From NCBI GenBank assembly GCA_963771355.1, contig CAVYTA010000006.1, forward strand, positions 96,001 through 160,000: DNA of 64,000 nucleotides, written 5' to 3'. The DNA is from an uncultured Candidatus Rokubacteria bacterium. GTDB taxonomy: Bacteria; Methylomirabilota; Methylomirabilia; Rokubacteriales; CSP1-6. Positions within the stretch are counted from its first letter, which is position 1, and each line of letters opens with the position of its first letter. Of the stretch, positions 3,211 to 7,772 are shown piece by piece. Under the pieces are notes generated by a model. The model ran no database searches. It was given only the letters and a program-made list of their open reading frames with translations, and was not told the origin of the DNA. The translations under genes were made by a program, and so were the position numbers.

Positions 3211-3400
3211 TGTCCAGACTCGGGTTGGTGTTGACACTTTCGCCGTCCCAGAGTGAGGCATCAAGTTACTGAAGCCACCACGGCGCCGTGGAAGAGGGAG
3301 GCCGGCGTGCGCCCTCGGACGCGGTAACCGTGATGGGGGCGCTCGAAATTGTAGAACTGCAGGAAACCGCACAGGCTGCGCTCGGCAGCGCGATCTCGAC
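3211..3400 (-). mobile_element. IS481-like remnant: transposase C-terminus and terminal repeat
   Basis: Minus-strand peptide FLQFYNFERPHHGYRVRGRTPA (YNxxRPH..G.TP integrase-core tail) ending at 3261; TGT-starting end TGTCCAGACTCGGGTTGGTGTTGACA at 3211-3236 next to CTAG. Confidence 0.65.
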
Positions 3401-3755
3401 GCCCTCCGCATGGATGAGGCGCAGGAGATCGTGCTGCTGAAGTCCCAGCGAGCCCGAGGTGTTCGTCAGTGCGTATTCGTCGAGGGGACAGCCGAGCAGG
3501 CCGTCGCGCGTCCACTCGAACGCGTTTCCGGGACGCTCGGGAATTGAGAAAAGCGACAGCTCACCCGCTCACCATCGCAATAGAGGTCGTCGGTTGGCCT
3601 GATCGCGCGCTGCCGAGAGAACGCGGCCACGGTTTTGCGCCCGAACCGCCGAACCGAATACGGCGAGCAGTCCGGACATTGTTCAGGCGTCCGGACAGTC
3701 ATGGCCACCATCGTGCTCGAGTCGGTCGAGATGCCGGCGGCGACGCGGCTGGTGC

Positions 3756-4688
3756 TCACCTCGACGGCCGATCGGCGGATCGCGCCCGTTCGGCCCAGCG
3801 GAGCAGATCGGCCCGTGGCCAGACGAGATAGTATGCGATGGGCAGGTATTCGCCCGCTTCGTACAGGCGCCGCCGCGTGTCCGACCTGGCCAGGGCATCG
3901 CGCACCGCCGAGGGATGCGACCCGTATCGGAAGCCCCTGGCCCCGCGCTCCAATCGCCGCGAACGGAGGTAGGCGAGCCGCGGGCTGATCGTCTCGATCC
4001 GGGGATCGTAGAACCAGGCAGTACCGAAGACCCCCTTGACCTCGGGGTTGCGGACCAGCAGCTCTGCTATGCGAAGGTAGCTCCGGTCCCAGCTCTCCGG
4101 ACTGAACTCCGTCAGACGGCGCGGGTCGAGGTGCAGGGAATAGAACGGTCGGAAGCCGCGCGTCCTGACCAGGAAGAAATATACGCCTCGGAGGAACTGG
4201 AGCGCGCCTCCTCGGCAGAGCAGACTCCGTGGCACGCCCGCGCCCACCTCGAGTAGCTCCGCTCCGCACGGGAGCAAGATGAACCGACACAGCCCCAGAT
4301 CTTTCAGGAACAAGTCGTTGGAGAAGTGATAGAAGTCGTCCGGCTGGTGCCCGGTGTCCCGCTGGATCCGCCCGATCTCTTCACGGAGGAGCTCGACGAC
4401 AGATTCCGGTATCGCCTGCCCGGCGACCCTCGTCTCGAACGAAGCGGCCAGGTGCAAGAGGAGAAGCTTGTGGTACTTGCCGAGCGTGGACCGGCCCGCC
4501 CGCCGGGTGATGTCCAGGGAGGCGTCGCGGGTGGTGTTGCTGATCCAGCCGTATCCCCGATACCGGAGCGCTGCCTCGCCGGGCTCGAGATATTGCTCAA
4601 GCGGATGGCGCGTCAAGATCTCTTTGTCGGCGGCGCGCACCTGCGCTCGCAGTGCATCTTGGAGGGGGCCGAGGCCAGGCAAGGTCAC
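3756..4688 (-). CDS. Hypothetical protein, possibly acyltransferase/GNAT-like
   Basis: 310-aa ORF of globular composition; LHLDP..W..SY..IAE.L..NP..KG.FG.AWFYDP; GTG start overlaps the upstream stop (GTGA). Confidence 0.65.
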   Translation of the reverse strand: MTLPGLGPLQDALRAQVRAADKEILTRHPLEQYLEPGEAALRYRGYGWISNTTRDASLDITRRAGRSTLGKYHKLLLLHLAASFETRVAGQAIPESVVELLREEIGRIQRDTGHQPDDFYHFSNDLFLKDLGLCRFILLPCGAELLEVGAGVPRSLLCRGGALQFLRGVYFFLVRTRGFRPFYSLHLDPRRLTEFSPESWDRSYLRIAELLVRNPEVKGVFGTAWFYDPRIETISPRLAYLRSRRLERGARGFRYGSHPSAVRDALARSDTRRRLYEAGEYLPIAYYLVWPRADLLRWAERARSADRPSR

Positions 4689-4903
4689 CGGGAATCCCGC
4701 CTCGCCTGCTGCCTTTGACCGCTCGCGCGCGTGTGGGCCTGGATTGCCTTGGAGGCCGTTTTCTCGAACTGCCGCTTGGCGACATTCTCGACGGCTGCAC
4801 TCCCGATCGCCTTGCGCTTGGTGGATCGGCGGGCGGCGGCGGCGGCCGCCGCGGTTTCTTGATTCGCCGAGGTCACACGCGACGACGCCTTTTTGCTCTT
4901 CAT
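4685..4903 (-). CDS. Small basic hypothetical protein (72 aa)
   Basis: GGAGGG RBS before ATG 4903; MKSKKASS...QARRDSR; coupled to the downstream gene. Confidence 0.6.
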   Translation of the reverse strand: MKSKKASSRVTSANQETAAAAAAARRSTKRKAIGSAAVENVAKRQFEKTASKAIQAHTRASGQRQQARRDSR

Positions 4904-4927: not shown

Positions 4928-6313
4928 CTATAGCCGAAGCGGAGGATCTTCAGCACCGATGTCGTGGTGGTCGTGGGCGGCAATCTTGAAGAAACGCTCG
5001 GCGTGGCTCGGGTGGACGGAGAGCTGGGTCGCGAGATCGCTCGCGGTGGCGCCGTTCCGGATCGCCAACGTCGCCATCTGGATGAGCTCGGCGCCCGCAT
5101 AGCTGATCATCTGGGCCCCCAGCAGCCGTTCCTGGGCGGCGTCGAACACCAGCTTGAGATACCCGTCGTCTTCCCCGGTGGCGCGGCCGTTCGAGGCCCC
5201 CCGTAGATCCTGGGTCGCGACGTGGCACTTCACGCCGCTGGCCGTTGCCGCCCGGTGGGTCAGGCCGACCCTGGCCACTTCCGGGGTGGTGAAGACGCTC
5301 TGAGGCACGAGCGTGGTGTCGGCGATCAGCTGGTCGCCCAGCAGCGCGTTGTGCGCCGCGAGACGGCCCTCGTACGCGGCCACCGGCGTGAGCTGCGCGT
5401 TGCCGGCGGCATCCCCGGCCGCGTAGATGTGGGCCACCGAGGTGCGGAGATAGGGCGTGACCGCGAGGCCCAGGCGCCCCCTCTCCAGCCCCAGGTGCTG
5501 AGCGCCCAGTGTTTCGGGCCGCCACCGGCGCCCGATGGCCACGCACGCCTGGTCCGCCGCCACCGCGTGAGGCTCGCCGTCTCTCGTGAACCGCGCGGTC
5601 ACGTCGCCTCGTCTTCCCGAGAAGCTCGTGAGCGTGGCGCCGAGGTGAAAGGTGACGCCGCGGCTCTCGAAGATCCTCCTGAGGTATCCGGCCACGTCGG
5701 GGTCGAACCCGGGGAGGATCTCGCCCTCCTGGCCGACGACCACGACCTCGGCTCCGAAGTCGCTGAACGCGCCCGCCATCTCCAGACCGATGACACCCGT
5801 CCCGACGATGACGAGACGTTGCGGGAAGACGGGCAGGAACAGGAGCTCGTCCGAGGTGATCGCCGCTTCGATGCCTGGCACCGCCGGAGCGACGGGGATG
5901 GATCCCGCGGCGATGATGATCCGGTCGCTCCGCAGGGTCGCGTCGTTCACCACGATGGTGTGCGGATCGGCGAACCTCGCTTCGCCGAGGATGATCTCGG
6001 CTCCCGGCCGCGCGAGCGCCGCCGGCAGCGGCTGGAACTCCTTGACGATGTCGTGCTGCCGGCGGATGACCGTCGGCCAGTCCAGGGCGATGGGGCCCGC
6101 CGTCGTGCCGAAGCGTGCTGCATCCTTCGTGATCCGGTGAATCCGCCCAGACCTTACCAAGGCCTTTTTCGGGATTCACCCCCAGTTGACGCACGTTCCG
6201 CCGAGCGGTCCCCGATCGACGAGAGCGACCCGCGCTGCGAGTGTAGCGGCCGCTTTCAATGCATTGATGCCCGCGGCCCCGCCTCCGATGATGACCAGGT
6301 CATAGCGATCCAA
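4928..6313 (-). CDS. Class-I pyridine nucleotide-disulfide oxidoreductase (LpdA/MerA/Gor-like) with in-frame UGA at codon 46; probable selenoprotein
   Basis: TTG start after GGAGG; MDRYDLVIIGGGAAG...GPLGGTCVNWG-TGA-IPKKAL continues in frame into ORF 4928..6160; GTGVIG NAD site, IYAAGD, HPSHAE; no C-terminal Cys-Cys. Confidence 0.85.
6141..6175 (-). promoter_or_regulatory. Putative bacterial SECIS element
   Basis: Immediately 3' of the UGA: AGGCCUU-GGU-AAGGUCU hairpin with apical loop at +18 to +20; lower AUCC/GGAU pairing possible. Confidence 0.65.
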
Positions 6314-6392
6314 GGCGATCCTCCCTCATGAGTTCGCCCGACGTTCGTCCGACCGTACGCGTCCCGATCGTAACGCGTCCGAGGCGCGCTCC

Positions 6393-6414
6393 AAGGTGGA
6401 CCAAGGTCCAATAG
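6393..6414. promoter_or_regulatory. Palindromic operator, copy 1 (consensus CTATTGGAC-N4-GTCCAATAG)
   Basis: AAGGTGGAC-CAAG-GTCCAATAG; centre 31.5 bp from TACGAT (minus strand, 6367-6372) upstream of the oxidoreductase. Confidence 0.7.
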
Positions 6415-6438
6415 GCGGTCCCGAGGGGGCGGACTAGC

Positions 6439-6750
6439 TGTGAAGTCCCAGGAGGTTCTCCACCCGGGCCATCTCTGCGACGTTGGTGGTTGCGAGTCGA
6501 CCATCACCGCAGAGCCGGAGGCCCGGATGGACATCCATAAGAATGCCCGGACGACGCCGCATAGTCGAGCGGCAATCGTCGTGCGGGTCACCCAGTTGGG
6601 CGAAAGCATCAAGGGTGTGGCGCGGGCGGTCGGTGTCTGCCCCAAGACGGTGCGCAAATGGTTGGCTCGGGCCGGCGAGGGCCTCAGCGACCGCTCCTCG
6701 CGACCGCAGCAGCTCCCGACCGCCACGCCAGCCGCACTGGTCGCGCACGT
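6439..6750 (+). mobile_element. IS481-family left end with truncated transposase N-terminus (ATG 6527)
   Basis: TGT end preceded by ACTAGC (NCTAGN target); MDIHKNARTTP..VARAVGVCPKTVRKWLAR..GLSDRSSRP is a typical IS481 N-terminus; breaks off near 6750. Confidence 0.85.
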
Positions 6751-7772
6751 CGCGCCGTCTTGGCGCGGAGCGCGATGAAGGCGCCGGGGCCCACCGCGCA
6801 GAGGAGGTCGACCTCCTCGAGCGCCTGACGGGCCACCTTGGTGTAAATCCCGTTGTTGCCGGGGTGATCGGAGATGGTGCCGAGGACGAGGATCTTGCGT
6901 GATGCCCGCGCGCTCCGCAGGAAGGCCAGGACCGGCGGGAGCGTGCCGAGCGAGGCCTTGAGATCGTCGCGAACAAAGGTTACCCCGTCCGCGAGCGCGA
7001 CGGGATTCATGCGGCCCTTGAAGGGCTCGACCTCACCGATCGCCCGGGCGGCATCGGACAGGGGAATGCCCATCTCGAGCCCGACCGCGACGGCGGCCAG
7101 TGCCGCCGAAACCCAGTGGGTGCCGCAGAGCTGGGTGCGCACCGGGGCCCGCTCGCCGGCATGGACGAGAGTGAAGGACAGACGGTCCGGCCAGGCGCCC
7201 GTCACGTGCTCGGCGCGAAGCTCCGCCGAGGGATCGAGGCCGAAGGTACGTACGCGGCCCGGGAACCCCTCGCGCATCGCGAGTACGCGCGGGTCGTCGG
7301 CATTGAGGATCGCGACGCCATCGGGGGGAAGAGCCCGGATGAGCTTGCCCTTCTCGGCGGCGATGGCGTCGAGCGAGCCAAACGCCGTGTAGTGATCGGT
7401 GGACACGCTGGTCACCACCCCGATGCGTGGCCGGAGCAAGGCAAGGGGCCGGTCGAGCGAGCCCGGCCCGATGTTCGCGCCGATCTCGACGACCCGGAAC
7501 TGGTCGCGGGTCCGGACGGAGAGCACGTTGCGCGCGATGTCGTGCGCATAGTTGCCGGATCCCCGTCCCACGTTGCCGCGCAGGCGCGTGGCGAGCACGG
7601 CGGCGAGCAGGTCCTTGGTGGTGGTCTTGCCCGCGCTGCCGGTCACCCCGATGAAGACCGTGCCGCGGAGCCTCGAGCGGTGGCCGCGCGCGACCTGCCA
7701 GTAGGCGAGCTGGTAGGCGGGGCGCAGGACTCGCCAGTACAACCCCGTGGCCAGCCGGACCGGAGACAGCAT
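6750..7772 (-). pseudogene. MurF-like Mur ligase, C-terminally truncated at the IS481 fragment
   Basis: IGVTGSAGKTTTKD, EKGKL, LNADDP, GRM, DD..A motifs; lacks the usual MurF N-terminal domain; the frame runs into IS sequence (ORF stop 6684). Confidence 0.7.

Follow-up and report, generated by a model that had tools for sequence, protein, structure and literature searches.

This locus raises the question of whether a TGA codon, which interrupts an otherwise open frame for a flavoenzyme, ends the protein or is read as selenocysteine (Sec), and what the enzyme would do in the latter case. In the window (the whole 64,000-nucleotide stretch of DNA that was analysed) the frame starts with TTG at 6313-6311 on the minus strand and ends with TAG at 4930-4928, after ...PPLRL. 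Its translation contains a single internal stop, the TGA at 6178-6176, which is codon 46 of 461. The earlier note had proposed one frame of 461 amino acids, beginning at this TTG behind a GGAGG Shine-Dalgarno sequence and crossing a single TGA, and the same coordinates are recovered here (Table 1). Homologues have equivalent starts with purine-rich leaders.

The redox centre of the frame reads GGTCVNWG*IPKK, with C41 and the stop at position 46. Alignment with solved and annotated enzymes places codon 46 at the second Cys of the CxxxxC motif, in agreement with the earlier assignment of the TGA to the second Cys of GGTCxxxGCxPxK. ORF callers begin at TTG 6160, within the hairpin that follows the TGA. 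The resulting 410-aa ORF lacks, as had been pointed out, the FAD-binding N-terminus; it is left without the FAD motif and without either redox residue. The HPSHAE motif and the absence of a MerA-type C-terminal CC, also described before, are both seen in the translation.

Table 1. Features of the reductase gene, in window coordinates.
Feature	Position	Strand	Remarks
Full CDS, class-I flavoprotein disulfide reductase	4928..6313	(-)	461 codons; PF07992 4-316, PF02852 336-441
Shine-Dalgarno GGAGG	6320..6324	(-)	6 nt ahead of the TTG start
FAD-binding GxGxxG, G10-G15 (GGGAAG 10-15)	6269..6286	(-)	missing from the database ORF
Cys41	6191..6193	(-)	aligns with the interchange thiol of Gor/Lpd/MerA
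In-frame TGA, codon 46	6176..6178	(-)	aligns with the charge-transfer, flavin-proximal Cys
SECIS-like hairpin, 7-bp stem, GGU loop at 6158-6156	6149..6165	(-)	built from rare codons TTG GTA AGG TCT
NAD(P)H-binding GTGVIG (171-176), Lpd-like Gly176	5786..5803	(-)	
Cys363	5225..5227	(-)	Sec-type 38/38, Cys-type 0/9
His434-x4-Glu439 dyad (HPSHAE), predicted catalytic	4997..5014	(-)	conserved 120/120
His-rich tail HDHH	4964..4975	(-)	the family's next Cys (HDHHE[I/V]C) is missing here

The codon is retained among relatives. A profile built from 24 sequences and searched against 236 genomes of the phylum finds matches in 73 of them. The gene has an internal TGA in 52 genomes and no stop across the site in 16 genomes of genus g34; the further matches are three partial genes that do not span the site and two MerA-like genes ending in CC. 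The named relatives belong to Rokubacteria/Methylomirabilota. At the codon level TGA stands at position 46 in 41/41 genomes examined (identity 35-100%), with the frames intact on either side of it in most of them. A soil-metagenome contig of independent origin (run X7, record 31, 6020-6428) differs from the window by substitutions at 6067, 6146 and 6308 and leaves the TGA codon unchanged.

Directly behind the codon, AGGCCUU-GGU-AAGGUCU (6165-6149) folds into a stem of 7 bp with a 3-nt loop beginning with GG (-12.1 kcal/mol for 39 nt), at a UGA-to-loop spacing of 17 nt, and agrees with all four bSECIS constraints of PMC13188914 section 5. It is the retention of the hairpin among homologues, and not its own folding energy, that makes it significant, since the stability of the single sequence is about that of shuffles (z from -0.9 to -1.4) and not above chance. 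In a register fixed on the TGA sequences themselves, at least 5 bp are formed in 43/43 distinct TGA sequences of clade A, to which the window gene belongs, and 6 bp in 29/29 of those of a further clade, B; in the same register pairing does not go beyond 3 bp in any of the 9 Cys orthologues or beyond 2 bp in any of the 66 other Cys enzymes, related sequences in these counts not being independent of one another. Compensating variants of the stem occur (GACCTT/AAGGTC, GGCCCT/AGGGCC, GGTGCT/AGCACC). The clade A stem retains codons whose usage in the window's genome is 1.8-2.7%, namely TTG in 48 of 55 sequences, GTA in 43/55 and AGG in 50/55. In clade B all stem codons are fixed (31/31) and the loop positions vary. 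The g34 genes, with TGC at the site, share synteny with Sec genes of genus g5. Both selA (15/17) and tRNA-Sec (4/5) are retained in the g34 hosts, yet the hairpin is absent; hence it tracks the codon rather than the host.

In the genome of the window (5.5 Mb, 99.8% complete), selA, selB and selD score above their cut-offs, and a tRNA-Sec is present. The ARAGORN output contains one tRNA with a UCA anticodon, which Rfam assigns to tRNA-Sec, and UGA is an ordinary stop both in this genome and in this gene family, where many genes end in TGA. A filter for TGA followed by a hairpin over the whole genome returns 319 candidates, 69 of them with a hairpin; it is a rough list, which misses the gene at 4928-6313 itself and includes many operon junctions. 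About 30 of the 69 we take, by their motifs, to be FdhA, Prx, TlpA/Trx, DsbA, AhpD/CMD, UGSC, MoeB, rhodanese and similar selenoproteins, and several of the candidates are AhpD-like. The genome's own selD match (G000:C4:225335-226252) has no in-frame TGA and lies at the end of an 817-aa open frame, which is likely a fusion; five relatives, unlike it, have selD of the TGA type. Among the other TGA carriers selA is present in 45 of 51. Five of the six selA-less carriers were examined further, with selB in 0/5, tRNA-Sec in 1/5 and a selD with in-frame TGA in 5/5. These gaps are consistent with missing parts of metagenome-assembled genomes (MAGs), because selC, selA and selB are clustered and a single assembly gap would account for their joint absence. 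No selA, selB or tRNA-Sec was detected in three TGA-carrying MAGs rated at least 95% complete.

We suggest that UGA46 is read as selenocysteine, with a probability of about 0.95. That the TGA is a nonsense mutation or a sequencing error in a pseudogene, or that the 410-aa downstream ORF is the real product, is extremely improbable. Such a reading would suit the presence of the gene in only one of seven genomes of the window's genus, the insertion-sequence remnant of type IS481 upstream of it and the stray TGA singletons in other flavoenzymes of this superfamily; against it stand the TGA in 41/41 genomes over the whole range of identity, the compensatory stems, the retention of rare codons, the TGA of the independent contig and the loss of the FAD motif and redox residues from the shorter ORF. 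It is hardly more credible that UGA46 is decoded as Cys or Trp. The six TGA carriers with undetected selA could be cited for this, but TGA is an ordinary stop here, the lone UCA-anticodon tRNA is tRNA-Sec by Rfam, and the codon, aligned with a catalytic Cys, has behind it a hairpin of the bSECIS type that is absent from the Cys orthologues. The earlier note had preferred selenocysteine to a nonsense mutation and had named three observations that would speak against it, namely TGC or TGT in the reads, a genome without Sec machinery, and close homologues that all have Cys and no hairpin. None of them was made: the contig has TGA, selA, selB, selD and tRNA-Sec are all found, TGA is kept at the same column in related genomes, and the hairpin, for which bacterial SECIS geometry had been claimed, folds as described and is kept in the close TGA homologues.

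As to the enzyme itself, PF07992, PF00070 and PF02852 are over cut-off and correspond to the FAD Rossmann, NAD(P)H Rossmann and interface domains. The AlphaFold model (pLDDT 90) superimposes on Lpd, MerA and Gor with TM of 0.86-0.90 (about 0.87 to 1GER), and Lpd structures top the fold search. In the model of a tail-bearing member residues 431-456 have pLDDT below 50. The scores for the best 25 of 42 NCBIfam models all fall short of the respective cut-offs, and no selenoprotein model is among these 25. The trees join the clade to Gor within a PKK branch (SH-aLRT 96-98); MerA, RclA and Lpd fall elsewhere. The protein is thus placed by its sequence as a Gor-branch class-I flavoprotein disulfide reductase outside any named subfamily, and is very likely a selenoenzyme. 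The earlier class, a flavin-disulfide oxidoreductase, stands and is narrowed by the tree and the cut-offs to a Gor-like PKK branch that is neither Lpd nor MerA.

Gor (1GER) and glutathione amide reductase (2R9Z) share with it the fold, GGTCVNxGCxPKK, LTPVA, HPxxxE and the tree branch. In contrast to Gor, Sec replaces the flavin-side Cys, the NAD(P)H motif has no Gor-type Tyr, and this copy has no NADPH-type Arg. The studied family also bears a C-terminal His/Cys arm, and the host genome has no gshB over cut-off. No bshC was found in the genome either; the result for glutathione synthesis concerns the gshB route. The glutathione reductase models NF004776 and TIGR01424 give 310.6 against a cut-off of 480, so membership fails. 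Gly194-Gln195-Glu196 and Pro201 leave no Arg for a 2'-phosphate, and we presume that the lack of Gor-type Arg residues and the Lpd-like pattern mean a preference for NADH. Residue 195 is mixed across the clade (Gln in 16/38, Arg in 17/38), and for this subclade NADH appears the more likely cofactor.

Animal TXNRD has Cys-Cys beside FAD and Sec in a C-terminal GCUG. It resembles the present protein in the class-I fold, in being a selenoenzyme (here a predicted one) and in having, in most members of the family, a flexible extension at the C-terminus that bears a potential redox residue. Here, unlike in TXNRD, Sec would occupy the N-terminal centre, and the tail carries no more than one Cys; TIGR01438 (high-Mr thioredoxin reductase) gives 182 against 475.85 bits, with no Gly-Cys-Sec-Gly, and membership fails. 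In CoADR/Nox the redox Cys is the flavin-side one. A Sec family resembling CoA-disulfide reductase, with the redox Cys replaced by Sec encoded by UGA and SECIS (PMC13188914 Table 1), belongs to the same superfamily and has Sec at the redox Cys position. However, it has a single-Cys centre (UGxP), whereas the present protein has a dithiol-type CxxxxU-IPKK centre and the His-Glu dyad, and scores 83.5 against the 578.8 bits of TIGR03385 (CoA-disulfide-reductase-like), failing membership.

The roles of the His-Glu dyad and of CysCT/CysINT in class-I enzymes are described in PMC8358701. We suggest the following mechanism. SelB and Sec-tRNA would read the hairpin and insert Sec at UGA46. In the homodimer NADH would reduce FAD, and FAD would open the Cys41-Sec46 selenenylsulfide via its flavin-side atom, here selenium, which would leave a selenolate-FAD charge-transfer species. 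Cys41, aided by His434/Glu439 of the partner subunit, would then attack the substrate disulfide, and the selenolate would resolve the mixed disulfide. Turnover of a small disulfide or oxidised thiol/selenol would feed the organism's large thiol/selenol redox network, and in most members the C-terminal Cys arm may relay electrons. Selenium would lower the pKa of the charge-transfer residue and resist over-oxidation. Given recoding, the electron path from NAD(P)H via FAD to Cys41-Sec46 is, by analogy with the class, highly probable; that the protein is a Sec-containing disulfide-type reductase using this path, whatever its substrate, is slightly less certain and still probable. For a small non-glutathione disulfide or an oxidised thiol/selenol as the substrate the chances are about even.

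A Sec enzyme of the same fold might instead detoxify reactive oxidants or soft metal(loid)s (Hg/Ag/Se species), with selenium shielding the centre against over-oxidation and the tail binding metal, which we consider possible, if rather unlikely. RclA/Har act on hypothiocyanite/chloramine-type oxidants. MerA supplies the top NCBIfam and PDB sequence matches (5X1Y, E 1e-70, with the fold and an AAYEG motif in common), besides Cys363-His364 the family has a conserved Cys within a His-rich tail, an Fe/Mn SOD gene adjoins 4/34 clade-A loci, and N-truncated clade-B relatives end in CCG. However, the protein stays below the cut-offs for MerA (346 against 454; for TIGR02053 exactly 345.9 against 454.45, so membership fails), RclA (206 against 740) and hypothiocyanous acid reductase (201 against 650). 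It has an interface His and not Tyr, no CC tail, no NmerA domain and no mer operon; mer genes are absent among the recurrent neighbours, and its tree position is away from MerA and RclA. Much less probable is a dihydrolipoamide dehydrogenase (E3) with selenium, which might reduce lipoyl groups on behalf of AhpD-like selenoproteins. The names E3/Lpd on many JGI fragments, the NAD-type GxGxIG with Gly176, the His-Glu dyad, the first place of Lpd structures in the fold search and the several AhpD-like Sec candidates of the genome point that way. Against this, the protein has PKK and not PSK, lies in the Gor branch and gives 333.5 against 408.8 bits with TIGR01350 (dihydrolipoyl dehydrogenase), failing membership; the genome has two ordinary Lpd genes, both within 2-oxoacid dehydrogenase operons, and no E1/E2 gene stands beside this one. 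Of these readings, we retain the disulfide-type reductase.

A generic DNA pattern run over metagenomes returned at least 120 stretches. Among the 80 matches listed, 39 prove to be class-I genes that have TGA at the site: 19 of clade A, 8 of clade B, 5 Mtr-like, 2 PRK06370-like and 5 singletons. The clade B genes have a C-terminal FPT and no catalytic His. One of the Mtr-like genes scores above NF004947; these genes have a hairpin of their own, with identical codons in 7/8 when shorter loci are included, and the two PRK06370-like genes among those matches likewise have their own hairpin. The five singletons are without the clade hairpin and are probably errors, nonsense alleles or cases of other codes. 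One AT-rich Gor-like gene (L149) has TGA at the same Cys and no hairpin; its host possibly reads UGA as Cys, which is a guess. In the RNA runs X15/X16 the contigs are mostly diverged and make up small shares of the runs.

Clade B (L104-L116, L124, L126, L139, L155, L186, L200, L205) keeps CxxxxU and has FPT(L/F)(A/G)G(S/A) in place of the HxxxxE dyad; it has a His in QH(T/S)P. This replacement suggests, at the level of sequence, a different chemistry. A clade-B gene of a single genome (L125:1489-2826 (-), genome G026) has TGA at both redox Cys (UxxxxU) and a single downstream hairpin. Four N-truncated database representatives (P0246, P0261, P0267, P0270) group with clade B (SH-aLRT 92), three of them ending in a MerA-like CCG, and one cluster member is labelled Blastocatellia. 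They may be further hidden Sec clades, known here as proteins alone.

The origin of Sec at this site was addressed with trees that omit all but every twelfth of 60 distant Caldilineaceae-type loci, as well as fragments below 290 aa (one tree) or 380 aa (another). The grouping of all Sec forms as one clade is rejected (p 3e-81), while that of clades A and B is not (p 0.063). We suggest that Sec arose at this position at least twice, probably three times or more. The g34 Cys forms are nested within the Sec clade, near the syntenic Sec genes, in FastTree trees and in a mixture-model tree (SH-aLRT 96), and their position as sister to Sec clade A is not rejected (AU test, p 0.31). A reversion from Sec to Cys in g34 is favoured by three trees; a smaller LG tree leaves the direction of change open. 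The C-terminal part differs with the codon: a His-rich tail with Cys occurs in 35/38 loci and 110/115 database proteins of the Sec type, as opposed to 0/9 of the Cys type. The window copy retains Cys363 and lacks the tail Cys. The Cys-type lineage (L255 of G177 and the g34 loci L246-L254) is without Cys363 and the tail Cys and has GxGxxA and Arg195, and one Cys-type member has also lost the first Cys (GGLSINRGC).

Neighbourhood clustering of 61 and 35 loci gives no conserved functional partner and no clue to the substrate. The genes that recur nearby (MGH1-like glucosidase, glucokinase, SDR, M16 peptidase, pterin dehydratase, SOD) seem to reflect local synteny. An MGH1-like glycoside hydrolase gene adjoins loci of both clades A and B (L033, L097, L100 and L126, L139, L155, L175, L186, L200, L205), and a SthA-like paralogue in the window's genome is also beside such a gene. 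Immediately downstream, at 4685-4903 (-), lies a small basic Ala-rich ORF (MKSKKASSRV..., about 72 aa), which has no Pfam match and is found beside the gene in 8 clade-A loci. Just upstream, at 6440-6778 (+), is the N-terminal remnant of an IS481 transposase (PF13011), and a short downstream ORF at about 3261-3515 (-) looks by eye like a C-terminal IS481 piece, with no Pfam match. The IS481 remnants, together with the absence of the gene from six congeners, hint at its recent acquisition.

The family is present in databases in truncated form, as had been expected of pipelines that would split or miscall such a gene. Among the top 120 clusters each for the window protein and for a clade-B protein, query coverage is at most 89%; none of these 240 contains the CxxxxC centre, and all begin after the TGA, the 120 of clade A at residue 52 or later. 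The fragments are named E3, glutathione reductase, mercuric reductase or NAD(P)/FAD-dependent oxidoreductase, and the clade B proteins include entries labelled Candidatus Binatia, Deltaproteobacteria and NC10. In 1.84 billion representatives the top two matches are truncated clades (623 and 542 bits), and the best full-length protein reaches 421. Such N-truncated, often misnamed clusters can distort counts of pathways and of mercury resistance in soil metagenomes.

The Gor/Lpd/MerA/TrxR family is the textbook case of flavin-thiol chemistry, with Sec of animal TrxR on a remote tail. A class-I CxxxxU enzyme is absent from the 2026 catalogue of 119 families (PMC13188914, Table 1), in which the flavoproteins are the CoA-disulfide-reductase-like family (UGxP) and type III SQR (HxxU); the entry 'putative mercuric reductase' there stands for a metal-binding protein with UxxU. 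The available parts of PMC9312934, PMC12013277, PMC13326102, PMC13582414 and bioRxiv 10.1101/2022.07.06.499078 contain none either; the lack of a match for reductase, oxidoreductase or dehydrogenase in a single file of the BSepDB supplement carries no information on the point. In the full-text literature searched there is no description of such an enzyme; the supplements of Deng et al. 2026 and of Haft and Tolstoy 2025 may bear on the novelty. By the account in PMC13188914, Deng et al. 2026 report 63 selenoprotein genes in a Methylomirabilota MAG, with new unvalidated candidates, and the families of Haft and Tolstoy 2025 appear in the same table. The novelty is limited, because the catalogue already has a related flavoenzyme whose redox Cys is replaced by Sec. 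What appears new is Sec at the flavin-side Cys of a class-I CxxxxC centre, a type absent from the 2026 catalogue, in what is very likely a selenoenzyme.

The window's genome contains a gene similar to CoA-transferase subunit A (L296, G000:C7:248670 (+), PF01144) in which an in-frame TGA interrupts EHS*PA. In 12/12 loci examined (43-100% identity) the TGA keeps this position, with a conserved CTCCAGGCNGGAG hairpin core behind it. The gene is absent from the catalogue table of PMC13188914 and is a candidate for a second uncatalogued selenoprotein.

Put together, in a reading that we consider less likely than not, Sec at the class-I flavin-contacting position may have been invented repeatedly: in a Rokubacteriales clade, in a Rokubacteriales/Binatia clade without the catalytic His, in Mtr-like and PRK06370-like enzymes, and once as UxxxxU. 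The studied clade may then be an 'inverted TrxR', with Sec by FAD and a C-terminal His/Cys shuttle arm, serving as the NAD(P)H entry point for the selenoproteome of about 30 proteins of gshB-less soil bacteria. If this is true, a natural selenolate-flavin charge-transfer centre would have been found for the first time in a dithiol reductase. With a natural Cys-x4-Sec beside FAD, all-Cys orthologues in synteny to serve as controls and a double-Sec variant, the question of why selenium is used rather than sulfur becomes directly testable at the flavin.
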